From Vagococcus sp. (GTDB lineage: Bacteria; Bacillota; Bacilli; Lactobacillales; Vagococcaceae): DNA of 64,000 bases. Every line of letters begins with the position of its first letter. Within the stretch, counting starts at the first letter, position 1. Both the position numbers and the translations under genes were made by a program. The stretch lies in contig NZ_JBQEIL010000004.1 of the NCBI RefSeq assembly GCF_052102835.1, positions 7,003-71,002 on the forward strand, given 5' to 3'. Below the pieces are notes generated by a model. The model was not told the origin of the DNA. It saw only the letters and a list, made by a program, of their open reading frames with translations, and did no database searches. This document shows, one piece after another, positions 14,816-33,456 of this stretch.

Positions 14816-14897
14816 ACTTATAATATTAAGTTTATCTAAAAAATAATTGTAAACGTTTTAGACTTATGATATTATTAAGGAACTTAATATATTAAGA
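14816..14897. promoter_or_regulatory. PTS copy-1 promoter: two ACTTAATATATTAAGT-like palindromes (probable GntR operators) and a cre-like site
   Basis: ACTTATAATATTAAGT (14816-14831), TGTAAACGTTTTAG (14848-14861), ACTTAATATATTAAGA (14882-14897). Confidence 0.6.
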
Positions 14898-14950
14898 TGT
14901 TATCTTGACATAACATCTGGCATTAACTATTTCATAAGGAGGAATTATTA

Positions 14951-15427
14951 ATGATTACAGGAGTAAGAATTGATGGTCGTTTAATCCACGGTCAAGTCGC
15001 AAATTTATGGGTTCCTAAATTAGGAATTACAAGAGTCATGGTTGTTGACAGTGATGTCGTGACTAGTGATATCGAAAAAAACAGTTTAAAACTAGCAACA
15101 CCATCCGGTATTAAACTTAGTGTGTTAACACCTGAAAAAGCCGCAACTAATCTTTTAGCAGGACGCTATGATTCGCAAAAAGTGCTCATTGTTGTGAAAA
15201 GACCAAGCTATTTGGTTAAATTAGTCGAACTTGGTATGCCGTTAGAGGTGGTTAATGTCGGAAACATGTCACGTGTGGATGGTTCAAAAACAATTACTAA
15301 ATCAGTCAATGTTTTAGATCAAGACGTTCAAGATTTTGAATTGCTTCATGCCAAAGGTGTTAAATTAATTCATCAAATGGTTCCATCAGACAATGAAAGT
15401 AGTTTTATGGAATTATTAAAAAAATAA
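14951..15427 (+). CDS. PTS mannose/fructose/sorbose family IIB
   Basis: RIDGRLIHGQV phosphorylation motif; VNVGNM. Confidence 0.95.
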   Translation: MITGVRIDGRLIHGQVANLWVPKLGITRVMVVDSDVVTSDIEKNSLKLATPSGIKLSVLTPEKAATNLLAGRYDSQKVLIVVKRPSYLVKLVELGMPLEVVNVGNMSRVDGSKTITKSVNVLDQDVQDFELLHAKGVKLIHQMVPSDNESSFMELLKK

Positions 15428-15450
15428 AATAATCTAAGGGAGTGTAACAA

Positions 15451-16344
15451 ATGGAAATAGTATGGTGGCAAATTTTATTAATCACATTATACGCAGGGTA
15501 TCAAATTTTAGATGAATTGACGATTTACTCTGGTGCAGGCTCGCCTGTTTTTGCTGGTTTGTTTACCGGAATTGTCATGGGGGATATGACCGCCGGTCTA
15601 ATCATCGGAGGAAGTATGCAGTTAACCATCCTTGGTGTTGGGGCATTTGGGGGAGCGTCAAGAATTGATGCCAACTCAGGAACGATTTTAGCAACGGTCT
15701 TCTCGGTTGGTTTAGGGATGAACCCAGAACAAGCTATCGCAGCGATTGCAGTACCTGTCGCAAGTTTAATGATCCAAATGGATATTTTAGGTCGTTTTGC
15801 GAATACTTATTTCGCTCACCAAATTGATAAACAAGTTGAAAATATGGATTACAAAAAAATTGAACGCAATTATTTAATGGGTGCACTATCTTGGAGTTTA
15901 TCTCGTGCCCTTCCTGTTTTCTTAGCCATCGCATTTGGTGGCGAAGCTGTCAATACAGTTGTACATTATTTAAATACAGATTTGAAATGGTTAGGTGATG
16001 GTCTATCAACTGCAGGAGCTATCTTACCAGCTGTCGGTTTTGCGATTTTACTTCGTTACTTACCAGTTAAAAAACACATTGCTTACTTAATCTTAGGCTT
16101 TGTAATTACGGCTCTCTTAACAACTGTCTTTGGAAACATTCAAGCTGTTGGTGGGGTAGTGGGTACATTATCAAAAGATTTCACACAAATCTTAAATGGT
16201 TTACCAATGTTAGGTATCGCATTGATTGGTTTTGCTTTAGCCTATCTCCAGTACAAACGTGCAATTGAAACACCGGTCGCAACATCAAATGGATTGACTA
16301 TCTCTGATTCAATGGAAGGGGAAATCGAAGATGACGAACTCTAA
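15451..16344 (+). CDS. PTS mannose family IIC
   Basis: Polytopic; GLIIGGSMQL..LG, GAILPAVGFAILL motifs. Confidence 0.95.
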   Translation: MEIVWWQILLITLYAGYQILDELTIYSGAGSPVFAGLFTGIVMGDMTAGLIIGGSMQLTILGVGAFGGASRIDANSGTILATVFSVGLGMNPEQAIAAIAVPVASLMIQMDILGRFANTYFAHQIDKQVENMDYKKIERNYLMGALSWSLSRALPVFLAIAFGGEAVNTVVHYLNTDLKWLGDGLSTAGAILPAVGFAILLRYLPVKKHIAYLILGFVITALLTTVFGNIQAVGGVVGTLSKDFTQILNGLPMLGIALIGFALAYLQYKRAIETPVATSNGLTISDSMEGEIEDDEL

Positions 16345-17140
16345 ATATAAGTTAACTAAAAAAGATTTTAACCAAATTAACCGTAGAAGTTTAATGGGTT
16401 TTCAGTTGGGTTGGAACTATGAAAGAATGCAAGGATCAGGTTATCTTTATACAATTTTGCCACAATTACGTAAAATTTATGGCGATGATACGCCTGAGTT
16501 AAAAGCAATGATGAAAACACATACGCAATTCTTCAACACAAGTAACTTCTTGAATACTTTGGTGACAGGGATTGACTTAGCAATTGAAGAAGAAGAAGGA
16601 GTGGACGCGAAAGAAACCGTTGCCGGTTTAAAAACAGGTTTAATGGGACCTTTCGCAGCTATTGGGGACTCAATCTTTGGCGCATTATGGCCAACAATTT
16701 TTGGAGCAGTCGCAGCCAACATGGCAGTGAACGGTAATCCCGTCGGGATGTTAATTTGGGTGCTAGCGAACGTTTTAGTAATGTACTTCAGATGGCGTCA
16801 ATTAGAATTTGCTTATAAAGAAGGGGTTTCACTAGTAACAACGATGCAAAGTAAGTTGACTGCAATCACAGATGCAGCTACTGTTTTAGGGGTTTTCATG
16901 GTTGGCGCTTTAATCGCAACAATGATCAATGTTCATATCTCATGGGCTCCAAAAATCGGAGAATTATCGATTGATATCCAAAACAGTTTAGATATGATCT
17001 TACCTCGTTTGGTTCCACTAGCGATTGTCGGAATGGTTTATAGTTTATTAGGACGTAAGAGAATGACTTCAACAAAAGTGATCTTTATCGTTTTAATTGT
17101 ATCAGTAGCATTATCAGCATTAGGTGTGATTAGCAAATAA
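16331..17140 (+). CDS. PTS mannose family IID
   Basis: WNYERMQG, FFNT, KTGLMGPFAAIGDS motifs. Confidence 0.95.
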   Translation: MTNSKYKLTKKDFNQINRRSLMGFQLGWNYERMQGSGYLYTILPQLRKIYGDDTPELKAMMKTHTQFFNTSNFLNTLVTGIDLAIEEEEGVDAKETVAGLKTGLMGPFAAIGDSIFGALWPTIFGAVAANMAVNGNPVGMLIWVLANVLVMYFRWRQLEFAYKEGVSLVTTMQSKLTAITDAATVLGVFMVGALIATMINVHISWAPKIGELSIDIQNSLDMILPRLVPLAIVGMVYSLLGRKRMTSTKVIFIVLIVSVALSALGVISK

Positions 17141-17168
17141 ATTTAAAACACAAAGGTAGGGAAAAGAC

Positions 17169-17558
17169 ATGAAAACAATGATTTTAGTCAGTCATGGCTC
17201 ATTTTGTGAAGGCTTGAAAGAAAGTGTGGAAATGATTTTAGGACCACAAGAACAATTGAAAACAGTTTCGTTATTGCCAGATGAAGAAGGCAGTGATTTT
17301 GCAGCGAAATTTGATGCGGTTGTATCAGGAACCGACGGTGACTATGTGGTTTTTGCGGACCTTTTAGGGGGAACGCCGGCTAATGTTCTAACGAATAAAA
17401 TCATGTCTGGGGAACCGATTGAAGCATATGCAGGAATGAGTATGCCGATGATTATCGCTTATTTGAATAGTGAAATGTTGGGGGAAGCTTTTGACTTAGA
17501 AAAAGCAAAAGAAAACAGCGTGGACTTAGCAGCGTACATCAAAGAAAAATTAGGATAA
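17169..17558 (+). CDS. PTS mannose family IIA
   Basis: LVSHG, ADLLGGTP, GMSMPM motifs. Confidence 0.95.
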   Translation: MKTMILVSHGSFCEGLKESVEMILGPQEQLKTVSLLPDEEGSDFAAKFDAVVSGTDGDYVVFADLLGGTPANVLTNKIMSGEPIEAYAGMSMPMIIAYLNSEMLGEAFDLEKAKENSVDLAAYIKEKLG

Positions 17559-17564
17559 AAAAAT

Positions 17565-17603
17565 AAAGGTTGGCTTATCGAATGACAAGATAAGCCAACC
17601 TTT
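17565..17603. terminator. Bidirectional terminator
   Basis: AAAGGTTGGCTTATC...GATAAGCCAACCTTT perfect 15-bp stem. Confidence 0.85.
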
Positions 17604-17616
17604 AATCTATAAAAAT

Positions 17617-18327
17617 TTAAATGGTTTCAATTTTAGTTTCATAATAGTCCCAACGTTTAAAACTTTCAATGTATTCAACGACTTGAATGTCATTAAGAAA
17701 AGTCGTTCTTTTAGCAAAGCTTGTCGGACAATCTTCACTAATTTGTAAAAGTTGAGCCGTTCTTTTAGGTGTTGGAAATTGAATTGCATAGTATTCAACT
17801 GAAGGTGAAGTAGTCAAATGAAAATTATAATCACGCCTCATCTTATCGTAAATCGAAATAAAGTTAGAGGGATCTTTAAGATCTTCTTCTTTGACGTAAT
17901 CAGAAGAAAGGTAAGTGTATTGTAAAAAGAAAGGAATACCGTTACTTTTTCGTAGTCTTTCAAAACAGTAGATTTTTTTATTGGTATCAATTTTAAGTTT
18001 TTTACGAATGGTATCATCGTTAATTTCAGTGATGCTGATGACATGGGTAGTGACATCGGCATCTTCATTGGGGAATTTATCCACATCAGTAAATCGAACA
18101 GGTTGACCTAATTTTCCTCTCGAAACAAAACGACCTTTCCCTTGAACACTATATAAGTATCCTTCACTCACTAATTCTTTTAAAGCACGAATGACGGTAA
18201 TTGAGCTAACTTGGAAGAGTTCAATTAATTCAGATTCGCTATAAAATTTATCACCAGGTTCAAATTCACCGCTCACAATTTTTTGAAGTAGCGCGTTTTT
18301 GACTTGTTGATATTTAGGGATTGCCAT
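17617..18327 (-). CDS. GntR family (HutC/UTRA) regulator
   Basis: PKYQQV...SESEL...VSSITVIRAL...QGKGRFV winged HTH plus UTRA-type C-terminus. Confidence 0.9.
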   Translation of the reverse strand: MAIPKYQQVKNALLQKIVSGEFEPGDKFYSESELIELFQVSSITVIRALKELVSEGYLYSVQGKGRFVSRGKLGQPVRFTDVDKFPNEDADVTTHVISITEINDDTIRKKLKIDTNKKIYCFERLRKSNGIPFFLQYTYLSSDYVKEEDLKDPSNFISIYDKMRRDYNFHLTTSPSVEYYAIQFPTPKRTAQLLQISEDCPTSFAKRTTFLNDIQVVEYIESFKRWDYYETKIETI

Positions 18328-18367
18328 ACTTAAACTCCTTTTTAGTCTTATTTACTTATATAGTACC

Positions 18368-18452
18368 ACTTAGTATATGAAGTGTCACCTACAAAAATGT
18401 TTGTAGTCGATTATTTTCTATGGTATATTAAGTTTAACTTAATATATTAACA
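18368..18452. promoter_or_regulatory. gntR/beta-galactosidase divergent promoter with probable GntR operators
   Basis: ACTTAGTATATGAAGT (18368-18383), half-site TATATTAAGT (18424-18433), ACTTAATATATTAACA (18437-18452). Confidence 0.6.
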
Positions 18453-18474
18453 TATTGTTTAGGAGAGGGTAATT

Positions 18475-20244
18475 ATGAATACGATAAAAATAACAGAGGA
18501 TTTTATGATCAATGGTCAACCAGTAAAATTAGTTTCAGGAGCAGTTCATTATTTTAGAATTGTTGAAGATTATTGGTACGATTCATTAGAAAAATTGAAA
18601 GAAATGGGTTGTAATGCCGTTGAAACCTATGTTCCTTGGAATTTCCATGAGAAAGAGGAAGACGTGTTTGATTTTACGTCATATCAACATAATTTAGTGA
18701 AATTTGTAAAGTTGGCCGAAGAACTTGGTTTATATGTGATTGTGCGTCCATCTCCTTATATTTGTTCAGAATGGGAGTTTGGTGGGTTACCTTATTGGTT
18801 GTTAACCAAAGACTGTCGTATTCGTTCAAGTGATCCTAAATTTATGGCTTATGTCGAGCGTTATTTCGAGCAACTTTTACCATTACTGACTCCTTTACAA
18901 TGGACGAAAAAGGGACCCATTATATTATTCCAGTTAGAAAATGAATATGGGTCATACGGTAATGACAAAGAATATTTGGAAGCCCACTATGACTTGATGA
19001 GAAAATTAGGGGTTGAAGTTCCTATTTTTACTTCAGATGGTGCTTGGGAAGAGGCACTAGAAGCAGGATATTTACCAGGGAAAGATGTTTTCCCAACAGG
19101 TAATTTTGGCTCACGAGCAAAAGAAAATATCGCTAACTTGACTCAATTTATGGAGGATAAAGGAATTGTTGCTCCAAAGATGTGCATGGAGTTTTGGGAT
19201 GGCTGGTTTAATCGTTGGAACGAACCAGTGATTAAACGAAATCCATTAGAATTACGTGATGCTGTGAAAGAAATGTATGATTTAGGAAGTTTAAATCTTT
19301 ATATGTTCCAAGGAGGAACGAATTTTGGTTTTATGAATGGATGTTCAGCTCGCGGGACGTTAGATTTACATCAAGTAACCTCTTATGATTATGATGCTCC
19401 TTTGACTGAGTGGGGAGATGTGACTGAAAAATATAGTTTACTTAAAGAAGTTTTTACAGGATCAAATGAGATCACTGTTAAGAATCACCCTAAAAAAGCG
19501 TACGATACAGCTAAACATGTGGCGTCAGTTTCTTTATTTAATACTTTAGAGTCATTATCTAAGCCTATTTATAATAAGTGGCCTTTACCAATGGAAAAAC
19601 TAAATCAAGGGTATGGTTACATTCTCTATCGTGCGAATATCGGCAAAGCTCGTCAAGTTGATAAAGTACGTGTGATTGAAGCGAGTGATCGGGTGAAGAT
19701 TTATTTAAATGAAGAAGAAAAAATAACACAATTTAAAAAAGAAATTGGTACAGAGTTTACGTTGGATTTAGAAAAACCTCAAGACAACCAATTGGATATT
19801 TTAGTTGAAAATATGGGACGTGTGAACTATGGTTCTAAATTAATCGCACCGACTCAAAGCAAAGGGATTCGTAATGGGGTGATGCTTGATTTGCATTTCC
19901 ATTCAGATTGGGAGCATTTTAATTTGGACTTGGAAGATATTTCAGCTGTCGACTTTTCAAAAGAATATACGGCAGGACCCGGTTTCCATAAATTTGAACT
20001 TGAAGTTCTTGAAAAAGCAGATACGTTTATTGATTGTCGGGGCTTTGGTAAAGGTGTTATGTTTATTAATGGTTTTAATCTAGGTCGTTACTGGGAAGTG
20101 GGGCCAATCCATTCTTTATATGTACCAGCACCTCTATTAAAAGAAGGTACGAATGAAATTATTATTTTTGAAACAGAAGGAATTTCTCAAGAAGAATTAC
20201 ATTTTACGGAGTTGCCAATTATTACCAAAATAGAAGAAAGTTAA
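18475..20244 (+). CDS. GH35 beta-galactosidase (cytoplasmic; BgaC/GnbG-like)
   Basis: SGAVHYFR, ETYVPWN, PYICSEW, QLENEYG, MEFWDGWF, YMFQGGTNFG, TSYDYDAP; no signal peptide. Confidence 0.95.
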   Translation: MNTIKITEDFMINGQPVKLVSGAVHYFRIVEDYWYDSLEKLKEMGCNAVETYVPWNFHEKEEDVFDFTSYQHNLVKFVKLAEELGLYVIVRPSPYICSEWEFGGLPYWLLTKDCRIRSSDPKFMAYVERYFEQLLPLLTPLQWTKKGPIILFQLENEYGSYGNDKEYLEAHYDLMRKLGVEVPIFTSDGAWEEALEAGYLPGKDVFPTGNFGSRAKENIANLTQFMEDKGIVAPKMCMEFWDGWFNRWNEPVIKRNPLELRDAVKEMYDLGSLNLYMFQGGTNFGFMNGCSARGTLDLHQVTSYDYDAPLTEWGDVTEKYSLLKEVFTGSNEITVKNHPKKAYDTAKHVASVSLFNTLESLSKPIYNKWPLPMEKLNQGYGYILYRANIGKARQVDKVRVIEASDRVKIYLNEEEKITQFKKEIGTEFTLDLEKPQDNQLDILVENMGRVNYGSKLIAPTQSKGIRNGVMLDLHFHSDWEHFNLDLEDISAVDFSKEYTAGPGFHKFELEVLEKADTFIDCRGFGKGVMFINGFNLGRYWEVGPIHSLYVPAPLLKEGTNEIIIFETEGISQEELHFTELPIITKIEES

Positions 20245-20258
20245 AGGAGTTTTTAATA

Positions 20259-22259
20259 ATGAGTTATATGTATTCGCTGCGATATGCGCTAGCCTTAGGT
20301 CGAGATAATACCAAACGTTTAGCTGATTTGGCTTACTTTTGTGAACGGGCTAAGATTGATGATATTAACTTTTTTATCAATCATGAGGAAATTGGTCGTG
20401 GCCATCTTACTTTTGATGAAACACGAGAATGGTTAGAATTATCTGCTGAATTAAAAGAATTTTTAGCAGCAAGAGATATCACTTTTTCAATGAATCCAGG
20501 GATTACTTTAATGCATGGGGATCGCGGTCGTGTTTTAAATGGAACACTCGGTTTTGAAACGATGGTCGATGCAACGGGCTTAAAAGCAACAGCAGTGGCT
20601 TGTCCTTTTGATCCGAATTTTCAAGCTTACTTAGCAAAGACTTATGCAATGTATGCTGAAGTTGAACCTGATTATCTTTGGTTAGAAGATGATTTACGTC
20701 ATTTTAATCATAAACCAGTTCAATGGGGATGTTTCTGTGAAAAACATATGGCTGAATATCGTCAACGCTTAGGTAATGACAGTATTACTCGTGAAGAACT
20801 AGTTCGTGCGATTTTAAAACCAGGAAAACCAACAATTGAGCGTCTAGCCTATTTAGAGATTGCCAAACAAACCATGATTGATTTAGTGAGTAAGATTGAG
20901 CAGGCGGTTCATGGCGTTTCACCAAAAACAAAACTATCATTAATGACATCTCAACCAGATCAACACACAACAGAAGGTCGGGATTGGGACCGAATTTTTA
21001 AAGCTCTCTCAGGCAATCAACCATTCGTCGCTCGTCCTCATTTGCCATCTTACAATGAGGTAACACCGAAAGAATATAGCAAAGGTTTTAATAGTATCAG
21101 TCGAGTGACAGCTGATTTATTAAAAGATGAAGCAGAGCTGTTTCCTGAGTTAGAAAATTACATGTACTCACGCTATGCGAAATCAAATCATTTTTCTAAA
21201 TTTCAATTGATGACTTCGTTAATGCTACATCCAAAAGGAACAACGATGAACTTGTTCGATATGATGGGGACAGGGGTTGTTCATGAATATCATTTGCAAG
21301 AGATGTTGGCGGAGGTAAAACCTTATTTAAGCCAAGTTAATGCTCTTGATTTGAAAGTTTCAGAACAAAAAGGGATTCACGTTTTATATGCACCTAAAGC
21401 CTCTTATGTGGTTGAAACCAAAGAGGGATTAAAACGAGAAGAATTGATAGCTCATGATGATTCATGGCTAGAGTTATTAAGTTCATTTGGTTTCAGTGTT
21501 ATCCCAGCACAGTTTGATTTTTCGATAAAAAATCAATTTGTAGCCGTTTCAGGTCAGTATTTGCGTACTCTATCTGATGAGGAAGTGATTCATCTCTATC
21601 AAGAGAATTTTATATTAATGGATGGAGAATCTGCAAGTATTTTAGTTGAAAAAGAGTTAGGGCATCTTGTTGGAATCCAAGGACTTGAATGGAAAGAAGT
21701 CCGTTCAGGCAAACAATCGTATGAACAAGTCACTAATGGAAGAAGCTACTGTGGTGTAGAAGAAGCTCGAATGACCTTGATGCAAAAAACAGGAGACTTT
21801 GCAGATATTACTTATGACGAGCAAGATTTAACAGTCATTTCGCGAGCTTTTAATGAGTACGATAAAGAGGAAGGGATTGTTTGTGCCGGATCTAAAAATA
21901 GTTTTATTTTACCTTTAGCTTGGGATGAAAAAGATGGCTGGAACAGTCAATACATCAGCTTCAAAGAAGAAATGATTAGAGAAGTACTATTGGAGCAAGA
22001 AACAGCACAACGTTTGGTGGTCTCAACGATAGATATGCCATACGTTAATATGTTCCATTATGTTAAAGCGGGTAGGAGTTACTATATCATCGCTAACTTT
22101 TCTTCAGAAAACTATAATCAAATTACTTGTAAGTTAGATGAAACAACAGCGAAATTAAAGGAATATCATCTGACCGGTGAAAAAGAAATTCAGTTCCAGA
22201 ATCAAGTGATTGCCACTCCTTTAGCAGCCTTAGATATCAAAGTATTTGAAGTACTTTAA
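20259..22259 (+). CDS. Uncharacterised glycoside-hydrolase-like TIM-barrel protein (paralog 1)
   Basis: Shares motifs with 27805-29817 (HGDRGR, ACP, DDxRHFNH, GCFCExH, RPHLPSYNE, PELENYMYS); no signal peptide; function inferred from context. Confidence 0.6.
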   Translation: MSYMYSLRYALALGRDNTKRLADLAYFCERAKIDDINFFINHEEIGRGHLTFDETREWLELSAELKEFLAARDITFSMNPGITLMHGDRGRVLNGTLGFETMVDATGLKATAVACPFDPNFQAYLAKTYAMYAEVEPDYLWLEDDLRHFNHKPVQWGCFCEKHMAEYRQRLGNDSITREELVRAILKPGKPTIERLAYLEIAKQTMIDLVSKIEQAVHGVSPKTKLSLMTSQPDQHTTEGRDWDRIFKALSGNQPFVARPHLPSYNEVTPKEYSKGFNSISRVTADLLKDEAELFPELENYMYSRYAKSNHFSKFQLMTSLMLHPKGTTMNLFDMMGTGVVHEYHLQEMLAEVKPYLSQVNALDLKVSEQKGIHVLYAPKASYVVETKEGLKREELIAHDDSWLELLSSFGFSVIPAQFDFSIKNQFVAVSGQYLRTLSDEEVIHLYQENFILMDGESASILVEKELGHLVGIQGLEWKEVRSGKQSYEQVTNGRSYCGVEEARMTLMQKTGDFADITYDEQDLTVISRAFNEYDKEEGIVCAGSKNSFILPLAWDEKDGWNSQYISFKEEMIREVLLEQETAQRLVVSTIDMPYVNMFHYVKAGRSYYIIANFSSENYNQITCKLDETTAKLKEYHLTGEKEIQFQNQVIATPLAALDIKVFEVL

Positions 22260-22264
22260 TAGAT

Positions 22265-22310
22265 AAGAGCGTGAGGAAATGAAGACATTCATTCTCTTAC
22301 GCTCTTTTTT
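22265..22310. terminator. Bidirectional terminator
   Basis: AAGAGCGTGAG...CTCTTACGCTCTT followed by T run. Confidence 0.7.
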
Positions 22311-23193
22311 ATAAACTGGAGCGATATTTTTGACGGTATTCCTTAGGTGAAAGGTGCATATTTTTTTTGAAAGCTCGTGAAAAGTAGTAAGGATCGGTAA
22401 AACCAAGTTGATTACCAATTTCGTAAATTTTAAGATCACTCATTTTAAGATATTTACAAGCTTGTTCGATTTTTATTTCATTAAAGTATTCAATCGGGGA
22501 TTTATGCAAATATTTTTTATAAATGGAACTTAAATAACTTTGCGAGATGTTTAAATGATTCGCCATCTCTTGTAAGGTTAACGTTTTACTCAGATTTTTA
22601 TTGAGAAATTTAATGCTTTTAGCGAGGTAAAGATTTTGTTTATCTTGTTGAAGTTCATCTTTTAAAAAGATAATTTCAACGAGTAAAGTGTTTAAGAGTT
22701 GTACTGCACAGAGAGCTGTTTCAAAGTCATTGCTTTTTTCTGAGATGTCAAAAAGTTTAATAAAATCATCTTGAATCCAATGGTTTTTTTCTGGAGAGGA
22801 AATTTGAGTAAGTAAACGTCGCTCAAGCTGAAAAGTTTCGGGTACTTTAGTATCAAAATGCACCCAAAGAATCGACCAAGGGTTTGTTTCAGAACTATAA
22901 TAATAATGTCCCATGTTTTTGGGGATACAAAAAATATCGCCACGTTTTAATTGATAAGTGCCTGAGCCATTTAAGGATACAACTCCTTCACCATCTAAAC
23001 AAAAAATTAAAATAAAATCTGTTAAGTCATGATATCGTTCACGGTAGTGATACTTCGCTTTTGGATAGTAGCCCATCTCTTTAATGGTTGTTCCCTGTGT
23101 TAAGGGCAGTTGGTTAAGTTGTTCGGAGTAAGTATCTGAAACAATAATATGGCGTTCATCTTTAAAGCCATCTTTCTTTTTAATTGAGAGCAT
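22309..23193 (-). CDS. AraC family regulator (MsmR-like)
   Basis: GYYPKAKYHY, PWSILWVHF, C-terminal GFTDPYYFSRAFKK HTH. Confidence 0.9.
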   Translation of the reverse strand: MLSIKKKDGFKDERHIIVSDTYSEQLNQLPLTQGTTIKEMGYYPKAKYHYRERYHDLTDFILIFCLDGEGVVSLNGSGTYQLKRGDIFCIPKNMGHYYYSSETNPWSILWVHFDTKVPETFQLERRLLTQISSPEKNHWIQDDFIKLFDISEKSNDFETALCAVQLLNTLLVEIIFLKDELQQDKQNLYLAKSIKFLNKNLSKTLTLQEMANHLNISQSYLSSIYKKYLHKSPIEYFNEIKIEQACKYLKMSDLKIYEIGNQLGFTDPYYFSRAFKKNMHLSPKEYRQKYRSSL

Positions 23194-23235
23194 TTTTTCC
23201 CTCCTTTTAGGGTTATTTTAGCATGATAGTGCAAA

Positions 23236-23283
23236 ATAATCCATTAAAAGTGAAGATATCCTATGTTTATGTACCCGCTTTCG
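23236..23283 (+). promoter_or_regulatory. Candidate AraC direct repeats plus cre-like site
   Basis: ATAATCCATT (23236) and ATATCCTATGT (23256), 20-bp period; TGTACCCGCTTTCG at 23270. Confidence 0.45.
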
Positions 23284-23323
23284 TCTTAAGATAAGAGTAA
23301 CAAAACATTAGGGAGATGAGAAA

Positions 23324-26300
23324 ATGACAGGTCATGTTACGACAATTGAAAAAAAGATAACGATGCCAACTTATTTGACTGCTAAACCAGATAAGAATCC
23401 ATTGTTCTTTGAAAAAAGAGTTTATCAAGGAAGCAGTGGTAAAATTTATCCACATGCTATGACAGAGAAGATTTTAGATGAAAAAGTGGATGTGGACTAT
23501 CCTTCTGTAACCTTAGAAAACGATTATTTGAAAGTTGTTATTTTACCAACATTAGGTGGACGTATCCAACGAGCATACGATAAAACTAATGATTATGATT
23601 TTGTTTATTATAATCATGTAATTAAACCAGCTCTAGTCGGTTTGATTGGTCCTTGGATTTCAGGAGGAATTGAATTTAACTGGCCACAACACCACCGTCC
23701 GTCGACTTATATGCCAACAGAATATAAGATTGTTGAAAATGAAGATGGTAGTAAAACAGTTTGGGTAAGTGAAATTGATAAAATGTATGGAACAAAAGGG
23801 ATGGCAGGCTTTACACTTTATCCAGATAAAGCGTATATTGAAATTACTGGAAAAGTTAACAACTTAACCGATACTCCGCAAACTTTCTTATGGTGGGCGA
23901 ACCCGGCAGTACCTGCAAATGATCACACAGCATCAATTTTTCCGCCAGATGTTCATGCGGTAATGGACCATGGAAAACGTGCAGTTTCAGATTTTCCAAT
24001 TGCAACAGGAACGTATTACAAATATGATTATTCGGATGGAATTGATATTTCACGTTATAAAAATATAAAAGTTCCAACATCGTATATGGCTCATCACTCT
24101 GATTATGATTTTATTGGAAATTATGATGAAGAGAAAAAAGCTGGTTTACTTCATGTGGCCAACCACCATGTTTCACCAGGGAAAAAGCAATGGGTTTGGG
24201 GAAATAGCGACTTTGGTTTGGCTTGGGATCGTAATTTAACGGATTCAGATGGCCCTTATGTCGAGTTAATGACGGGAGTCTTTACAGATAATCAACCAGA
24301 CTTCACTTGGTTAAGACCTTTTGAAGAAAAGGAATTCCAACAATACTTCATGCCGTATAAAGGCGTTGGCCGTGTTAAAAATGCGACAATTGATGGCGCA
24401 GTTAATTTAGAAATTGAGGGTGAAGAGTTAGTTTATGCTTGCTATACAACGAGTAAACAAGCCAACTTAAGATTAATCATCACTCACTTGGATGACATTA
24501 TTTTAGAAGAAAAAATTGATTTAGATCCAGCGACTTATTATGAAGGTAAATTAACAAGTCCTCAATCTGAGATGAACTCAGATTTAAAAATTACTTTGGT
24601 TAATACTGATAATGAAATTATTGTTGAATATGTTGGCGTTAAAGAAAAAATTAATGAGTTACCAGATCCAGCTGAAGCTTTGCTAGAACCAGAAAAATTA
24701 AAAACAACAGAAGAGTTATTTTTAGCGGCAACTCATATTGAACAATATCGTCATGCCACCTTGAATGCTGTTGACTATTACTTAGAAGGGTTAAAACGTG
24801 ACCCAGAAGATATTCGCTTAAATAATGGGTATGGTTTACATTTATATAAACGTGGTTTGATTGCTGAAAGTTTAGAATATTTCAATCGTGCTGTGAAAAA
24901 ACAAACGTGGAAATCACCAAATCCATATTATGGCGAGCCTTTATTTAACCAAGGATTAGCGCAGTTACGTTTGGGACAAACAAATTTAGCGATTGACAGC
25001 TTTTTTAAAGCAACATGGAATGAAGATACACAATCATCTGCATTTTATCAATTAGCTACGATTTCAGCGCAACGAAAAAAATGGGATGAAGTTTTGAAAC
25101 AAGTCAAACAAAGTTTAATCCGTAATGCCCATCACTTGAAAGCCTTACAATTACGCTTAGCAACACAACGTCATTTAGAAAAAACCAATGATTTTGCATC
25201 TGTTTTAGACATTGATCCACTATACTTAGGTTTTCACTTTGAGCAGTTCTTACAAGACGAAACGTATGACTGGGAACGTGTGATGCGCGGCGAAATTAAC
25301 AACTATTTAGAACTTGCTTTAGATTATATCGCATGGGGAATGTATGAAGAAGCAGTTATTATTTTAAATCATGCACCACAAAGTAGTCCACTGACTCATT
25401 ATTATGCTGCTTTTGCTAAACGTCATCTAGGAGATGTTGAAGGAGCTAAGAATAGTGTTCGCTTGGGTGAAGCGGGTTCGACAGACTATTGTTTCCCGAA
25501 TAAATTAATGGAAATCCCGATTTTAAATACTGCGATTGATTTATTACCAAATGAATCAGGCTATGCTAAGTATTATTTAGGAAATCTTTTCTACGATAAA
25601 AAACGTTATGAAGAAGCGATTGAACTTTGGGAACAAGCAATAGAAGAGATATCAGAATTCCCAACAGTCTTTAGAAACTTATCAATGGCTTACTATAATC
25701 GCCAGGATGATTTAGCTAAAGCTAAAGAAATGATTAGCCGTGCCTTTGATTTAGATCCAACTGATGGACGTGTTTTATTAGAGAAAGATATTTTGGCACA
25801 AGTTAGTCAAGAATCTATTTCGTCTCGTTTAGTTGAATTAGAAAAACACTTAGAAACGACGAAAGATCGTGATGATTTATTTGTTACGTATCTCTCTTTA
25901 TTAAATAATCAAAAAGAATTTACCAAAGCATACGATTTGATGATGGCAAGACAGTTCCATCCATGGGAAGGTGGAGAAGGAAAAGTTTCTGGCCAATACA
26001 TGTTTAACTTAATCGAATGTGCGAGAGAATTAATGACGACTGAACCAGAAAAAGCAATTGACTTATTGAAACAATCTCAAGTTTATCCTGAAAACTTAGG
26101 TGAAGGAAAATTACCGAACGTTCAAGATAATTTATCAGATTACTATATTGCTAAAATTTACGAAGCACAAGGGAAAGTAGAGCGAGCTAAAGAATATTAT
26201 CAAAAAGCAGCTCTTGGTACGAGTGAGCCAGAAAGTGTTTTATATTATTATGATCAGCCAGCTGATTCAATTCTTTATCGAGGCTTAGCTCAAGAAAAAT

Positions 26301-26599
26301 TAGGAAATCAGAAAGACGCTCGAAAATGGTTCCATCAACTGATCCGTTATGGAGAAATCAATATCTTTGAAGAAGTAAGTTATGATTACTTTGCCGTTTC
26401 GATGCCTGAAACAGTGGTCTTTAAACGTGATTTAACTCAAGAAAATAAAACGTACTGTCGTTATTTGATGGCATTAGGAAATATTGGCTTGAAAAATTAT
26501 GAGAAGGCAACACAAATGTTAACAGACATTGTTAAAGAAGTGCCAGATCATCAGGGAGCACTAAGTCATTTATGGATGTTAGAATCTAAGACTTATTAG
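23324..26599 (+). CDS. yphG: DUF5107/TPR protein, YphG-like
   Basis: RVYQGSSG, LENDY, LGGR, IKPALVGL, GPWISGGIEFNWPQHHRP, DNQPDF motifs recalled from E. coli YphG; C-terminal TPR repeats. Confidence 0.8.
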   Translation: MTGHVTTIEKKITMPTYLTAKPDKNPLFFEKRVYQGSSGKIYPHAMTEKILDEKVDVDYPSVTLENDYLKVVILPTLGGRIQRAYDKTNDYDFVYYNHVIKPALVGLIGPWISGGIEFNWPQHHRPSTYMPTEYKIVENEDGSKTVWVSEIDKMYGTKGMAGFTLYPDKAYIEITGKVNNLTDTPQTFLWWANPAVPANDHTASIFPPDVHAVMDHGKRAVSDFPIATGTYYKYDYSDGIDISRYKNIKVPTSYMAHHSDYDFIGNYDEEKKAGLLHVANHHVSPGKKQWVWGNSDFGLAWDRNLTDSDGPYVELMTGVFTDNQPDFTWLRPFEEKEFQQYFMPYKGVGRVKNATIDGAVNLEIEGEELVYACYTTSKQANLRLIITHLDDIILEEKIDLDPATYYEGKLTSPQSEMNSDLKITLVNTDNEIIVEYVGVKEKINELPDPAEALLEPEKLKTTEELFLAATHIEQYRHATLNAVDYYLEGLKRDPEDIRLNNGYGLHLYKRGLIAESLEYFNRAVKKQTWKSPNPYYGEPLFNQGLAQLRLGQTNLAIDSFFKATWNEDTQSSAFYQLATISAQRKKWDEVLKQVKQSLIRNAHHLKALQLRLATQRHLEKTNDFASVLDIDPLYLGFHFEQFLQDETYDWERVMRGEINNYLELALDYIAWGMYEEAVIILNHAPQSSPLTHYYAAFAKRHLGDVEGAKNSVRLGEAGSTDYCFPNKLMEIPILNTAIDLLPNESGYAKYYLGNLFYDKKRYEEAIELWEQAIEEISEFPTVFRNLSMAYYNRQDDLAKAKEMISRAFDLDPTDGRVLLEKDILAQVSQESISSRLVELEKHLETTKDRDDLFVTYLSLLNNQKEFTKAYDLMMARQFHPWEGGEGKVSGQYMFNLIECARELMTTEPEKAIDLLKQSQVYPENLGEGKLPNVQDNLSDYYIAKIYEAQGKVERAKEYYQKAALGTSEPESVLYYYDQPADSILYRGLAQEKLGNQKDARKWFHQLIRYGEINIFEEVSYDYFAVSMPETVVFKRDLTQENKTYCRYLMALGNIGLKNYEKATQMLTDIVKEVPDHQGALSHLWMLESKTY

Positions 26600-26622
26600 G
26601 TTTTTAATTGATGATTGAAACG

Positions 26623-26658
26623 AGCAGAAAATCGTAACCTTCGATTTTCTGCTTTTTT
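26623..26658 (+). terminator. Intrinsic terminator between yphG-like and galM
   Basis: AGCAGAAAATCG...CGATTTTCTGCT followed by T run. Confidence 0.75.
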
Positions 26659-26680
26659 GTTAGTTAGGAGGGGAAGGTCA

Positions 26681-27676
26681 GTGTTAACAGTTAGTACCAA
26701 GGATGAGGAAATAACATCCGGAGAAAAATTAATTGAATATACAATACAAAACGAAAAATTCAAAGTTCGATTATTAAATTATGGGGCCACATTACGTGCA
26801 ATTGAACTCCCTAATGAAGCTGGTGTATTTGAAAATATTATCTTAGCACATGCTAATAATCAAGATTATCTTAAAGAACGTAGTTTTTTAGGGGCAAGTG
26901 TGGGACGTGTGGCAGGCCGAATAAAAAAAGGGGAATGGGGAACCGTTCAATTAGACCAAAATGAAGGAGTTAATCATCTTCATGGTGGAGATATCGGTTT
27001 TGATAATGTTTATTGGGAAGCAACTATTTCTCGAAAGAAAGAGAGTGTGACCGTTTCTTTTACACATTTCTTTGCCTCTGGGGTCGGAGGATATCCAGGT
27101 AATTTAAAAATGACAATTCATTATGTGATCTATGAAACAAAGGAACTTAAAATTATCTTTGAAGGGGTAACAGATCAAAAAACGTTATTAAACCCGACGA
27201 ATCATGCTTATTTTAATCTGAGTGGAGGAAAAGAACCAACGATTGCTTCACATGAGCTATTTTTGGCTAGTGATTTTTATCTTCCTTTAGAGGCAGATCA
27301 TTTACCAACGGGTGAAGTTTTGAAAAAAATAAAGCTTCTAGAACAAGCGGAGTTATTAGGAAATATTTTGAAATCTTCACATTTAGAAATTTATCAAGAA
27401 GATGGACTAAATCATGCTTTTCTTCTTAAAAAGGGAGTAAAACCTAGTGTTATACTGAGTCATACTCAAAGTAATCGGAAGCTAAAAATAACGACAAGTT
27501 ACCCAAGTGTGGTATGCTATACAGGTAATCATTTTAGTGACGATGATTTCGGTAAACATATTGCTATTGCTCTGGAATTTCAGAAAGTTCCTGATGTAGA
27601 CCATTTTGATTATTTGGGGAGTCATATTTTAAATAAAGAAACAAAGTATAGTGAATTCATTCACTATGTATTTTAG
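26681..27676 (+). CDS. galM: Aldose 1-epimerase (mutarotase)
   Basis: GASVGRVAGRI, NHLHGG, GYPG, NPTNHAYFNL, ALEFQ; start moved to GTG 26681 behind AGGAGG. Confidence 0.85.
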   Translation: MLTVSTKDEEITSGEKLIEYTIQNEKFKVRLLNYGATLRAIELPNEAGVFENIILAHANNQDYLKERSFLGASVGRVAGRIKKGEWGTVQLDQNEGVNHLHGGDIGFDNVYWEATISRKKESVTVSFTHFFASGVGGYPGNLKMTIHYVIYETKELKIIFEGVTDQKTLLNPTNHAYFNLSGGKEPTIASHELFLASDFYLPLEADHLPTGEVLKKIKLLEQAELLGNILKSSHLEIYQEDGLNHAFLLKKGVKPSVILSHTQSNRKLKITTSYPSVVCYTGNHFSDDDFGKHIAIALEFQKVPDVDHFDYLGSHILNKETKYSEFIHYVF

Positions 27677-27689
27677 GAAATAGTATAAG

Positions 27690-27740
27690 ATAATCCATGT
27701 TAGTTAGTAATAATCCATGTCGGAATTGTAAGCGCTGTAT
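27690..27740 (+). promoter_or_regulatory. Candidate AraC direct repeats plus cre-like site
   Basis: ATAATCCATGT exactly repeated at 27690 and 27710; TGTAAGCGCTGTAT at 27727-27740. Confidence 0.55.
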
Positions 27741-27804
27741 TATCCTTTACATATAGAGAGATTTCAATGTAAAGAAATGCTTACGGAATAAAGGAGGAAT
27801 AATA

Positions 27805-29817
27805 ATGTCAAATGATACCTTTTTCTATTCTCTACGTTTAGGGGTCGACCCTAAAAGTTGGGATCAGCAAAAAATGTCAGATTTAAAAAGATTCATTAAA
27901 GAAGCTAAAGTTGCTGATATTAATATTATCATTAATAGTGAGGAATTAAATGTTGGTCATATAACCAAAGAACAATTAGTTCCTTGGCTTGACATAACAG
28001 ATAAATTTAAGAAAGAACTAACACCACTAGGAGTTAGCGTTTCAATGAACCCTTGGACGAGTATCCTACATAGCGACCGTGGGCGCGTCTTAACGGATGA
28101 CTTTAATTTTAAAACGATGGTTGATTATCAAGGTCGAGCAGCAACTGCGGTCGCTTGTCCTGCAGATTTAAACTTTATAACGTATATTGCTGATATTTAT
28201 GGAGAATACGCTAAAAAGAATCCTGAATATTTATGGATGGATGATGATTTCCGTCATTTTAATCATAAACCTTTAGTTTTTGGTTGTTTTTGTGAAGCCC
28301 ATCTTGAGTTATATAATCAAGAATTAGGAACGAGTCATACTCGTGAAACTTTTGTTGAAAAAGTCTTTCAACCAGGTGAGCCGACAGTAGAAAGAAAAGT
28401 GTTTCTTAATCAAGCAAGAGCAGAGATGAAAGTTATTGGAGAAGCTATTGCAAAATCAGTTCATGAAAAATCACCAACAACAACGTTAGGATTGATGACT
28501 TCACAACCAGAGTGGCATGCTCTAGAAGCGCGTGATTGGCAAGGCCTTTTTGAAAAATTGTCAATAGATCAGCTACCAACATCAAGACCGCATTTGCCAA
28601 GCTACAATGAAATACCAGGTTTAAAATATATTCGTGAGTTTAATCGAAATGTTCGTCCTATTGCACAAATGATGGGGAAAAAAGCACAAATGATGCCTGA
28701 GCTTGAAAATTATATGTATTCTCCTTATGCTAAATCGAATAAATTTACACAGCTTCAGTTGGAAACTGTTTTATTAATTGGAGCGAAGGGAATTCTTTTC
28801 AATTTTTATGACATGATGGGAAATGGTGTTGTTTTTGGCTATAAACACCAGCAAGTCTTGGCTGAGAGTAAACCATTACTTGATTACTCTGTGGCAAATC
28901 CTATTGATTTAACAAATTTATCTGGGGTTAAAGTTCTTTTTAGTCAAGATACGGTTTACACACGTCATAGTCAAACAGGTCAATTAGAAGAAATGTTGCC
29001 TCGAGAATACGAGTGGTTATCCTTACTTTCGACATTTGGTATTAGTAGTGCCTTAGTAACGACAACAGATGTAGGAACCTTAACCAATCAAGTAGTGGCT
29101 GTGAGTGATCAAGTTTTACGTAATCTTTCTAACTTAGAAATCAAAACTTTATTTGAAAATAATCAAGTCTTACTAGATGGAACAAGCGTTAGTGTTTTAT
29201 TTGAAAGAGAGTTAGCTTACTTAATCCATGCAACTGAGATGGAATGGTTAGCACCTCACACAGGCTATCATACTTATGAGGAATGGAACGGTCCTGAAAA
29301 GATTGAAGGTGTCGAACATGCCCGAATGACAGTGATGCAACAGACGGGTGATTTAGCAAACGTCACATATCAAGATGACCAAGTAGAAGTACTAACCTCT
29401 CTCTATAATGAAACTAATCAATGGGTCGGCAATGGCATGGCAGTAATTGCTCAAAAACATTTCGTCTTGCCGATTAGTTATCATTTAAAATATGGCTGGG
29501 ATGCGCAATATGTTAGTTATAAAGAAACGATTTTTAAACGCTATTTAAAAGAAACAAAGGTTGATTACTTAGTTGAAATGCCAGTCAGTCAATTAATCAG
29601 AGAAGCGAAACGTCTATATTTAACTAACTTTACATTAGATGATTACGATACAATTCGTATTCATTTACATGATTATAAAAACGAAGCAACAATTGAAGCT
29701 CATTTAATGACACGTTATGGCAATCAAAAAGTCACGTTAAATAACGCTGGAGAGTATTTTGAAGTAGCAGTTCCATTAAATTCATTTGAAACAATAATTA
29801 TTGAATTATTGGGTTAA
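27805..29817 (+). CDS. Uncharacterised glycoside-hydrolase-like TIM-barrel protein (paralog 2)
   Basis: HSDRGR, ACPAD, WMDDDFRHFNH, GCFCEAH, RPHLPSYNE, PELENYMYS; divergent paralog of 20259-22259. Confidence 0.6.
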   Translation: MSNDTFFYSLRLGVDPKSWDQQKMSDLKRFIKEAKVADINIIINSEELNVGHITKEQLVPWLDITDKFKKELTPLGVSVSMNPWTSILHSDRGRVLTDDFNFKTMVDYQGRAATAVACPADLNFITYIADIYGEYAKKNPEYLWMDDDFRHFNHKPLVFGCFCEAHLELYNQELGTSHTRETFVEKVFQPGEPTVERKVFLNQARAEMKVIGEAIAKSVHEKSPTTTLGLMTSQPEWHALEARDWQGLFEKLSIDQLPTSRPHLPSYNEIPGLKYIREFNRNVRPIAQMMGKKAQMMPELENYMYSPYAKSNKFTQLQLETVLLIGAKGILFNFYDMMGNGVVFGYKHQQVLAESKPLLDYSVANPIDLTNLSGVKVLFSQDTVYTRHSQTGQLEEMLPREYEWLSLLSTFGISSALVTTTDVGTLTNQVVAVSDQVLRNLSNLEIKTLFENNQVLLDGTSVSVLFERELAYLIHATEMEWLAPHTGYHTYEEWNGPEKIEGVEHARMTVMQQTGDLANVTYQDDQVEVLTSLYNETNQWVGNGMAVIAQKHFVLPISYHLKYGWDAQYVSYKETIFKRYLKETKVDYLVEMPVSQLIREAKRLYLTNFTLDDYDTIRIHLHDYKNEATIEAHLMTRYGNQKVTLNNAGEYFEVAVPLNSFETIIIELLG

Positions 29818-29837
29818 AAATAAAGGAGGAATTATTA

Positions 29838-30314
29838 ATGATTACAGGGGTAAGAATTGATGGTCGTTTAATCCACGGTCAAGTCGCAAATTTATGGGTT
29901 CCTAAATTAGGAATTACAAGAGTCATGGTTGTTGACAGTGATGTCGTGACTAGTGATATCGAAAAAAACAGTTTAAAACTAGCAACACCATCCGGTATTA
30001 AACTTAGTGTGTTAACACCTGAAAAAGCCGCAACTAATCTTTTAGCAGGACGCTATGATTCGCAAAAAGTGCTCATTGTTGTGAAAAGACCAAGCTATTT
30101 GGTTAAATTAGTCGAACTTGGTATGCCGTTAGAGGTGGTTAATGTCGGAAACATGTCACGTGTGGATGGTTCAAAAACAATTACTAAATCAGTCAATGTT
30201 TTAGATCAAGACGTTCAAGATTTTGAATTGCTTCATGCCAAAGGTGTTAAATTAATTCATCAAATGGTTCCATCAGACAATGAAAGTAGTTTTATGGAAT
30301 TATTAAAAAAATAA
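29838..30314 (+). CDS. PTS mannose family IIB (copy 2)
   Basis: Protein identical to 14951-15427. Confidence 0.95.
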   Translation: MITGVRIDGRLIHGQVANLWVPKLGITRVMVVDSDVVTSDIEKNSLKLATPSGIKLSVLTPEKAATNLLAGRYDSQKVLIVVKRPSYLVKLVELGMPLEVVNVGNMSRVDGSKTITKSVNVLDQDVQDFELLHAKGVKLIHQMVPSDNESSFMELLKK

Positions 30315-30337
30315 AATAATCTAAGGGAGTGTAACAA

Positions 30338-31231
30338 ATGGAAATAGTATGGTGGCAAATTTTATTAATCACATTATACGCAGGGTATCAAATTTTAGAT
30401 GAATTGACGATTTACTCTGGTGCAGGCTCGCCTGTTTTTGCTGGTTTGTTTACCGGAATTGTCATGGGGGATATGACCGCCGGTCTAATCATCGGAGGAA
30501 GTATGCAGTTAACCATCCTTGGTGTTGGGGCATTTGGGGGAGCGTCAAGAATTGATGCCAACTCAGGAACGATTTTAGCAACGGTCTTCTCGGTTGGTTT
30601 AGGGATGAACCCAGAACAAGCTATCGCAGCGATTGCAGTACCTGTCGCAAGTTTAATGATCCAAATGGATATTTTAGGTCGTTTTGCGAATACTTATTTC
30701 GCTCACCAAATTGATAAACAAGTTGAAAATATGGATTACAAAAAAATTGAACGCAATTATTTAATGGGTGCACTATCTTGGAGTTTATCTCGTGCCCTTC
30801 CTGTTTTCTTAGCCATCGCATTTGGTGGCGAAGCTGTCAATACAGTTGTACATTATTTAAATACAGATTTGAAATGGTTAGGTGATGGTCTATCAACTGC
30901 AGGAGCTATCTTACCAGCTGTCGGTTTTGCGATTTTACTTCGTTACTTACCAGTTAAAAAACACATTGCTTACTTAATCTTAGGCTTTGTAATTACGGCT
31001 CTCTTAACAACTGTCTTTGGAAACATTCAAGCTGTTGGTGGGGTAGTGGGTACATTATCAAAAGATTTCACACAAATCTTAAATGGTTTACCAATGTTAG
31101 GTATCGCATTGATTGGTTTTGCTTTAGCCTATCTCCAGTACAAACGTGCAATTGAAACACCGGTCGCAACATCAAATGGATTGACTATCTCTGATTCAAT
31201 GGAAGGGGAAATCGAAGATGACGAACTCTAA
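30338..31231 (+). CDS. PTS mannose family IIC (copy 2)
   Basis: Protein identical to 15451-16344. Confidence 0.95.
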   Translation: MEIVWWQILLITLYAGYQILDELTIYSGAGSPVFAGLFTGIVMGDMTAGLIIGGSMQLTILGVGAFGGASRIDANSGTILATVFSVGLGMNPEQAIAAIAVPVASLMIQMDILGRFANTYFAHQIDKQVENMDYKKIERNYLMGALSWSLSRALPVFLAIAFGGEAVNTVVHYLNTDLKWLGDGLSTAGAILPAVGFAILLRYLPVKKHIAYLILGFVITALLTTVFGNIQAVGGVVGTLSKDFTQILNGLPMLGIALIGFALAYLQYKRAIETPVATSNGLTISDSMEGEIEDDEL

Positions 31232-32027
31232 ATATAAGTTAACTAAAAAAGATTTTAACCAAATTAACCGTAGAAGTTTAATGGGTTTTCAGTTGGGTTG
31301 GAACTATGAAAGAATGCAAGGATCAGGTTATCTTTATACAATTTTGCCACAATTACGTAAAATTTATGGCGATGATACGCCTGAGTTAAAAGCAATGATG
31401 AAAACACATACGCAATTCTTCAACACAAGTAACTTCTTGAATACTTTGGTGACAGGGATTGACTTAGCAATTGAAGAAGAAGAAGGAGTGGACGCGAAAG
31501 AAACCGTTGCCGGTTTAAAAACAGGTTTAATGGGACCTTTCGCAGCTATTGGGGACTCAATCTTTGGCGCATTATGGCCAACAATTTTTGGAGCAGTCGC
31601 AGCCAACATGGCAGTGAACGGTAATCCCGTCGGGATGTTAATTTGGGTGCTAGCGAACGTTTTAGTAATGTACTTCAGATGGCGTCAATTAGAATTTGCT
31701 TATAAAGAAGGGGTTTCACTAGTAACAACGATGCAAAGTAAGTTGACTGCAATCACAGATGCAGCTACTGTTTTAGGGGTTTTCATGGTTGGCGCTTTAA
31801 TCGCAACAATGATCAATGTTCATATCTCATGGGCTCCAAAAATCGGAGAATTATCGATTGATATCCAAAACAGTTTAGATATGATCTTACCTCGTTTGGT
31901 TCCACTAGCGATTGTCGGAATGGTTTATAGTTTATTAGGACGTAAGAGAATGACTTCAACAAAAGTGATCTTTATCGTTTTAATTGTATCAGTAGCATTA
32001 TCAGCATTAGGTGTGATTAGCAAATAA
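31218..32027 (+). CDS. PTS mannose family IID (copy 2)
   Basis: Protein identical to 16331-17140. Confidence 0.95.
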   Translation: MTNSKYKLTKKDFNQINRRSLMGFQLGWNYERMQGSGYLYTILPQLRKIYGDDTPELKAMMKTHTQFFNTSNFLNTLVTGIDLAIEEEEGVDAKETVAGLKTGLMGPFAAIGDSIFGALWPTIFGAVAANMAVNGNPVGMLIWVLANVLVMYFRWRQLEFAYKEGVSLVTTMQSKLTAITDAATVLGVFMVGALIATMINVHISWAPKIGELSIDIQNSLDMILPRLVPLAIVGMVYSLLGRKRMTSTKVIFIVLIVSVALSALGVISK

Positions 32028-32055
32028 ATTTAAAACACAAAGGTAGGGAAAAGAC

Positions 32056-32445
32056 ATGAAAACAATGATTTTAGTCAGTCATGGCTCATTTTGTGAAGGC
32101 TTGAAAGAAAGTGTGGAAATGATTTTAGGACCACAAGAACAATTGAAAACAGTTTCGTTATTGCCAGATGAAGAAGGCAGTGATTTTGCAGCGAAATTTG
32201 ATGCGGTTGTATCAGGAACCGACGGTGACTATGTGGTTTTTGCGGACCTTTTAGGGGGAACGCCGGCTAATGTTCTAACGAATAAAATCATGTCTGGGGA
32301 ACCGATTGAAGCATATGCAGGAATGAGTATGCCGATGATTATCGCTTATTTGAATAGTGAAATGTTGGGGGAAGCTTTTGACTTAGAAAAAGCAAAAGAA
32401 AACAGCGTGGACTTAGCAGCGTACATCAAAGAAAAATTAGGATAA
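32056..32445 (+). CDS. PTS mannose family IIA (copy 2)
   Basis: Protein identical to 17169-17558. Confidence 0.95.
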   Translation: MKTMILVSHGSFCEGLKESVEMILGPQEQLKTVSLLPDEEGSDFAAKFDAVVSGTDGDYVVFADLLGGTPANVLTNKIMSGEPIEAYAGMSMPMIIAYLNSEMLGEAFDLEKAKENSVDLAAYIKEKLG

Positions 32446-32448
32446 ACT

Positions 32449-32484
32449 AAAAAGAGTTGAGAATATTATTCTCAACTCTTTTTT
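32449..32484. terminator. Bidirectional terminator
   Basis: AAAAAGAGTTGAGAAT...ATTCTCAACTCTTTTT. Confidence 0.85.
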
Positions 32485-33204: not shown

Positions 33205-33456
33205 TCATAATGTGAAATGAACTGGGACCCATTCTCGAACGCTATTGATTAAGAAAATGTCATCCGCTTCGAGTAAATCTGCAGTCGTTAGAATGCTTTC
33301 TGTCAATAATCCTTCAGCTAAGAGCGTTTCACGCATAATCCCAGGTAACAGCCCACAATTACGAGGTGGGGTATAGAAGATTCCTTCTTTTTTTATAACA
33401 AGATTGCCATTAATGAACTCGGTCAGTTCATTTTCAGTATTCCAAAGTATCGTTTC
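33205..33456 (-). pseudogene. pabC: In-frame C-terminal remnant (83 codons) of the ADC-lyase (PabC) domain, cut off by a TAA at 33457-33459
   Basis: After ...HQQPT-TAA the same frame continues ETILWNTENELTEFINGNLV...CGLLPGIMRETLL...NSVREWVPVHFTL-TGA, typical class IV aminotransferase C-terminal motifs. Confidence 0.85.

Follow-up and report, generated by a model that had tools for sequence, protein, structure and literature searches.

A duplicated mannose-family phosphotransferase operon in Vagococcus: a real segmental duplication, probably older than it looks, with a near-perfect identity probably inflated by assembly

A 64,000-nucleotide stretch of a Vagococcus sp. genome (NCBI RefSeq assembly GCF_052102835.1, contig NZ_JBQEIL010000004.1, positions 7,003 to 71,002), referred to here as the window, carries two direct copies of a four-gene operon for a mannose-family phosphotransferase system (PTS) with the gene order IIB-IIC-IID-IIA. 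Data from a second assembly and from several sequencing runs show that the duplication is real and shared across the species. It is probably an ordinary segmental duplication that is older than it appears and whose near-perfect identity is inflated by assembly. The joint reading that the segmental duplication is real, that the second copy (copy 2) is ancestral and that the interior near-identity is mostly assembler-made receives a probability of about 0.6 from us.

Base-by-base comparison within the window showed that positions 14936-17559 equal positions 29823-32446 over 2,624 bp at an offset of 14,887, with a lone mismatch (A at 14962, G at 29849) that gives GGA or GGG for Gly4 of IIB and is synonymous. 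The repeat begins at an AAGGAGG ribosome-binding site, 15 nt before the ATG of IIB, and ends 1 nt past the TAA of IIA; the flanks outside both ends are unrelated between the copies. The exact ends and the single synonymous difference claimed by the first-pass annotation are thereby confirmed, and its further statements that promoters and terminators differ, that mobility genes are absent nearby and that the glycosidase-like paralogs are strongly diverged check out as well. A repeat of 2,624 bp cannot arise by chance. A second long repeat was found neither in the window (repeat search) nor in the whole genome of 2.37 Mb in 21 scaffolds (self-BLAST), and the repeat search gave no inverted repeats of at least 40 nt in the window.

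For comparison we used a second NCBI assembly, GCA_052086145.1, and Logan contigs (k=31) from several sequencing runs; below, A denotes the left flank, R the repeat, B the module between the copies and C the right flank. GCA_052086145.1 has the same R-B-R structure, with the offset of 14,887 and the same A/G site. In the runs ERR12057305, ERR12057356 and SRR28523237 the B-side contigs enter copy 2 only to position 29879, which is the A/G site plus k-1, and the B and C flank contigs extend 30 nt back into R (17530 and 32417). In five runs the R contigs end at 17559, and a single 12,350-bp Logan contig comprises the entire module B plus overhangs. The junction between the regulator gene AraC1 and copy 1 was also found in SRR27278169 (Logan contig L044), from a strain that differs at 6 of 1,344 flanking bp (ca. 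0.45%). Contig ends of this kind are what a de Bruijn graph with k=31 must give for a repeat with two contexts. The repeat boundaries and the difference at 14962 are independently supported; this site, 27 nt inside the repeat, is the only phased difference between the copies and is kept in all datasets. Since the junctions and the A/G site recur in the second assembly, in several runs and in the ca. 0.45% diverged strain, the duplication is not brand new. Exact 40-mer scans for the repeat end in JGI metagenomes and in genomes of the species gave no match, nor did exact-protein look-ups for IIC and for a guessed 5'-truncated IIB, and searching the literature for the accessions of the runs and assemblies was likewise without result. 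A Logan contig from SRR22022280 (L144, aligned to 16427-17560) represents a lineage that is 85% identical at the nucleotide level in IID-IIA; its end lies 2 nt past the IIA stop codon and no more than 1 nt from the repeat boundary, and a sister species may share this boundary or the duplication itself.

The genome looks like a short-read, MAG-like assembly (metagenome-assembled or rRNA-stripped), as suggested by its fixed 100-N gaps, the absence of 16S rRNA signature motifs anywhere in the 21 scaffolds, and the lack of any other repeat longer than 770 bp. Graph assemblers resolve a loop of the type A-R-B-R-C by writing the single R edge twice, and only differences within k of a boundary persist. 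Compared over positions 4951-42445, the window and GCA_052086145.1 differ at nine sites in R (15576, 15582, 15643, 16248, 16618, 16957, 16993, 17074 and 17134), eight of them synonymous and all nine identical in both copies, whereas the unique flanks differ at one site (27561) in 32,247 bp (binomial p = 7e-10 against R). The differences between these near-identical genomes thus lie almost only in the repeat, and they are mosaic between assemblies: ERR12057356, which carries the GCA_052086145.1 flank allele (27561 G), has an R contig that forms a third mosaic, of the window type at 16248, 16618 and 17134 and of the GCA_052086145.1 type at 16957, 16993 and 17074. Across nine sequences, sites at most 30 nt apart have never recombined, and all four gametes are seen in 54 of the 70 pairs separated by more than 300 nt, a pattern of local linkage and long-range shuffling to be expected if two haplotypes had their bubbles popped independently at k=31. 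Variation of R across samples amounts to 58 sites (53 synonymous) and to 0.2-1.4% between samples, far above the flanks. The identity of the interior (14963-17559) was probably made by the construction of the assembly; judged from these patterns, the true copies probably differ at some 10-20 mostly synonymous sites, or 0.4-0.7% (about 99.3-99.7% identical). This estimate is of similar size to the flank divergence (0.45%) seen in the strain already holding the duplication.

The first-pass annotation had itself warned of a consensus collapse of two similar copies, and this caveat turned out to be its best-supported point, as disagreement between two near-clonal assemblies and a Logan assembly is almost confined to the repeat. 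Collapsed repeats and loop resolution by de Bruijn graph assemblers are a known kind of artefact. The present case is alike in that the repeat exceeds the library span, forms a two-edge cycle of which one edge is written twice, and retains differences only within k of the boundary; unlike in such artefacts, the repeat and its boundaries are real here and only the degree of identity is doubtful. Dense, almost purely synonymous patches of single-nucleotide polymorphisms (SNPs; up to 10 in 40 nt) occur at 15645-15735, 16098-16137 and 16594-16705 (Logan contigs L055, L049 and L050) and have the look of short tracts brought in by recombination from unknown alleles. The 85%-identical lineage was rejected as the source of the SNP clusters in R, and the nearest genome of the genus, G010, gave no clear match either. 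Polarisation of the nine sites with G010 covered too few independent bubbles to be informative.

Several observations weigh against assembler-made identity or leave parts of the joint reading exposed. Across samples, each of two micro-regions (15576-15735 and 16221-16248) shows three or more haplotypes, which is more than two copies in a single clone can supply, so part of the variation in R must be allelic or due to mixed strains. Several of the runs are clearly metagenomes, and ERR12057356 may be one that holds both strain types. It may be that the strains truly differ at the nine sites and that both copies carry these differences. For the genome, a loop-walking assembler of the k-mer-graph type is assumed. 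The promoter of copy 1 is a consensus match only, and for the start of copy 1 exactly at the ribosome-binding site, selection for a promoter fusion or microhomology at AAGGAGG are guesses.

The history of the two copies can be approached by comparison with G010, which shows 77% nucleotide identity in R. It has one unit with the order GntR / GH35-666 / AraC2 / DUF5107-epimerase-670-IIBCDA, in which the gene for a 670-amino-acid protein meets IIB at a junction homologous to the one at copy 2. G010 has no equivalent of the region to the left of copy 1, and no other species of the genus has a second PTS copy. The single unit with a copy-2-type junction, the missing counterpart of the region left of copy 1 and the absence of a homolog of AraC1 from the genus all argue that copy 2 is ancestral and copy 1 derived, so that copy 1 would be the added one. 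An origin of copy 1 by deletion of the genes between AraC2 and the PTS was rejected, as AraC1 is not a copy of AraC2 (26% identity). The 14.87-kb unit of G010 (within G010:C1:125000-164999) sits between genes whose orthologs adjoin in the present genome, ca. 140 bp apart (C6:68992-69135). The G010 insertion site is therefore empty here, and the two species carry the unit, which has no mobility gene, at different places in the chromosome. The junction of copy 1 with GntR corresponds to the end of the unit joined to its own start, as in a head-to-tail dimer or a circle, which we note as a lead only.

The most serious competitor of assembler-made identity, though an unlikely one in our judgement, is concerted evolution, in which the copies would truly be ca. 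99.96% identical through ongoing gene conversion and the nine differences would be real alleles copied to both positions. Duplicated bacterial genes such as tufA/tufB and the rrn operons evolve in concert by RecA-dependent gene conversion, and the present locus resembles them in having two dispersed direct copies that are over-similar and show identical changes in both copies between strains. Both assemblies indeed carry the same nine changes in both copies, and the high, mosaic and mainly synonymous polymorphism of R relative to its flanks would fit as well, as would the lasting difference, which at 27 nt inside the edge of homology lies in a zone that conversion tracts seldom cover. The contig of the 85%-identical lineage that stops just after IIA hints at an old boundary and perhaps an old duplication. 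However, although the paralogs are more alike than the strain orthologs in both assemblies, an interior that is identical by construction in a short-read graph assembly carries no weight here; unlike in tufA/tufB and rrn, the copies are unphased in every dataset, so that the defining greater likeness of paralogs than of orthologs is putative here. Concerted evolution would also require at least two rare events, an import and a conversion of the whole operon, in lineages that are one SNP per 32 kb apart, and the Logan contig from a run with the GCA_052086145.1-type flank mixes alleles of both 'strains'. If the copies differ by ca. 0.4-0.7%, gene conversion is not needed. The first-pass annotation offered a choice between a very recent precise duplication and homogenised older paralogs; gene conversion is possible, but the recent origin is contradicted by the recurrence of the junctions and the A/G site in independent runs, including the 0.45% diverged strain.

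A very recent precise duplication in this strain only would account for the single difference in the assembled 2,624 bp and for the lack of a second copy in other species of the genus, but the same junctions and A/G site in the second assembly and in runs from several studies, and the abundance of R variants in those samples, make it the least probable of the explanations considered. Nearly as improbable is a structural artefact or mixed population, in which the chromosome has the arrangement A-R-C and R-B exists separately as an excised circle or episome, or was wrongly joined in scaffolding, the loop being linearised by the assembler. A k-mer graph cannot separate A-R-B-R-C from A-R-C plus a circular R-B, and the occupied site in G010, empty here, indicates that the unit has moved; yet the unit has no replication, integrase or transposase genes, its four junctions recur in independent runs with B as one unbroken contig, and the B/R junction is orthologous to the chromosomal arrangement of G010. 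A more speculative proposal, which we consider a long shot, is that R-B-R is the footprint of an integrase-free 14.9-kb glycan island that relocates and amplifies via a circular or head-to-tail intermediate formed by recombination of its own PTS repeats, with the copies kept alike by conversion. It builds on the copy-1/GntR junction as island end joined to island start and on the presence of the unit elsewhere in G010.

Under the preferred reading of a real duplication with assembler-made identity, a PTS operon of gnb/bgaC type, now present in duplicate across the species, would have acquired in this lineage a block encoding AraC2, a DUF5107 protein, a mutarotase and the 666- and 670-amino-acid proteins, inserted between GH35 and the PTS. 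Within this species a copy of the PTS would then have been placed behind AraC1's divergent promoter region, beside genes for sugar-acid catabolism. A k-mer-graph assembler would walk the A-R-B-R-C loop and write one collapsed R twice. The duplication would be somewhat older than the divergence of the sampled strains, with gene conversion at most occasional.

Table 1. Features of the duplicated PTS locus (positions in the window)
Feature	Position	Strand	Remarks
AraC1, AraC-family regulator, divergent from PTS copy 1	13910-14767	-	Pfam HTH_18/AraC_binding
Promoter-like site TTGTAA-17-TATTAT with TG, within the unique stretch of 168 bp upstream of copy 1	14847-14875	+	Consensus scan only
Repeat copy 1 (putative derived position)	14936-17559	+	IIB 14951-15427, IIC 15451-16344, IID 16331-17140, IIA 17169-17558
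Sole phased copy difference	14962 (A; G at 29849)	+	B-flank Logan contigs end at 29879 = 29849+30
Hairpin, 16-bp stem, -24.4 kcal/mol, between convergent IIA (copy 1) and GntR	17569-17601	.	First element of unique module B
GntR/UTRA regulator, divergent from GH35 operon	17617-18327	-	Domain search; canonical GntR/GH35-PTS order in relatives
GH35 beta-galactosidase (18475-20244) and unclassified 666-amino-acid protein (20259-22259)	18475-22259	+	
AraC2, AraC-family regulator, divergent from DUF5107 operon	22309-23193	-	26% identical to AraC1
DUF5107/TPR protein (23324-26599), aldose 1-epimerase (26615-27676), unclassified 670-amino-acid paralog (27805-29817)	23324-29817	+	
Repeat copy 2 (putative ancestral, syntenic position)	29823-32446	+	Order and homologous upstream junction as in relative G010
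Strong bidirectional terminator hairpin after copy 2, 16 pairs, T-run	32449-32483	.	-18.4 kcal/mol

The four open reading frames of the repeat match PTSIIB_sorb, EII-Sor, EIID-AGA and EIIA-man of Pfam, and PF03610, PF03830, PF03609 and PF03613 all exceed their gathering thresholds, which places the system in the mannose family (TC 4.A.6); matches to NCBIfam subfamilies fall under the equivalog cut-offs. To the left of copy 1 lie genes for sugar-acid catabolism (SDR, DHDPS-like, MR/MLE dehydratase, KDPG aldolase and PfkB kinase) and the divergent AraC1. A genus search revealed no close homolog of AraC1, the best match outside the genus being a Bacillus protein with 52% identity. In that organism, Bacillus sp. 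SD088 (GCA_017355205.1), the homolog is divergent from a GH2-MR/MLE-SDR operon, a context which suggests that the AraC1 subfamily may control sugar-acid or galactoside catabolism and not a PTS. Module B measures 12,263 bp. The stop codon of the 670-amino-acid gene lies 5 nt before copy 2, which is probably co-transcribed with the DUF5107-epimerase-670 genes. The 666- and 670-amino-acid paralogs are 39% identical, and the latter has no match in Pfam, NCBIfam or PDB. Homologs of this family (36-40% identity) are found directly after IIB-IIC-IID in ca. 15 Companilactobacillus genomes, at the usual place of IIA; this gene order suggests a functional tie to this PTS type, and the proteins may be intracellular (phospho)glycosidases. 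No perfect cre site is present near either copy, and no transposase, integrase or relaxase domains were annotated in ca. 37 kb around the locus. Further downstream, a PabB-like gene (33205-34923, minus strand, 488 amino acids) has a partial Aminotran_4 domain and is followed by a separate 81-amino-acid Aminotran_4 reading frame. Because GCA_052086145.1 is annotated with this split too, a one-off sequencing error does not explain the interruption.

Related loci occur in 75 Lactobacillales genomes, with IID proteins 63-80% identical to the one described here and the usual order of a GntR gene divergent from GH35-IIB-IIC-IID-IIA; within 20 kb, none of these 75 loci has another PTS of this type. 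In L. casei's gnb operon, a mannose-class PTS imports galacto-N-biose (GNB), lacto-N-biose (LNB) and N-acetylgalactosamine (GalNAc) for a GH35 phospho-beta-galactosidase (PMC6109692). The Vagococcus locus resembles the Lacticaseibacillus casei gnb operon (PTS-Gnb with the GH35 enzyme GnbG) and the bgaC-type GntR/GH35-PTS cluster of Streptococcus in combining mannose-family IIB, IIC, IID and IIA with GH35 and GntR, the latter two lying within the 12.3-kb module; the GntR/GH35-IIBCDA order holds in most of the 75 related loci, and IID is 71-73% identical to loci of the L. casei group. It differs in that the AraC2/DUF5107/mutarotase/666-670 block separates GH35 from the PTS, in that the PTS is present twice, and in that the module has no galactosamine-6-phosphate deaminase or GalNAc-6-phosphate deacetylase genes: no SIS/AgaS-type or amidohydrolase domains, of the kind that gnbE and gnbF (deaminase/isomerase and deacetylase) would encode, were found among the genes at 9448-35486. 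By analogy, the system is assigned to the gnb/bgaC type, with a host glycan of the GNB/LNB type as putative substrate.

These results imply that a "99.96% identical" kilobase repeat in a short-read or MAG contig should not count as evidence of recent duplication or of gene conversion; the hidden variation came to light when two near-clonal assemblies and k=31 contigs were compared. If true homogenisation were shown on phased data, the locus would offer a clear-cut example from nature of concerted evolution at operon scale in this genus, and if the island proposal were true, the PTS operon would be a recombination hotspot with unusually high synonymous diversity. The locus also illustrates how duplication can put a host-glycan (GNB/LNB-type) PTS to renewed use under a second regulator, and expression of one transporter may follow two regulatory inputs. 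As the first-pass annotation soundly inferred, RecA-dependent recombination between the 2.6-kb direct repeats should make it possible for the 14.9-kb unit to be lost or amplified.

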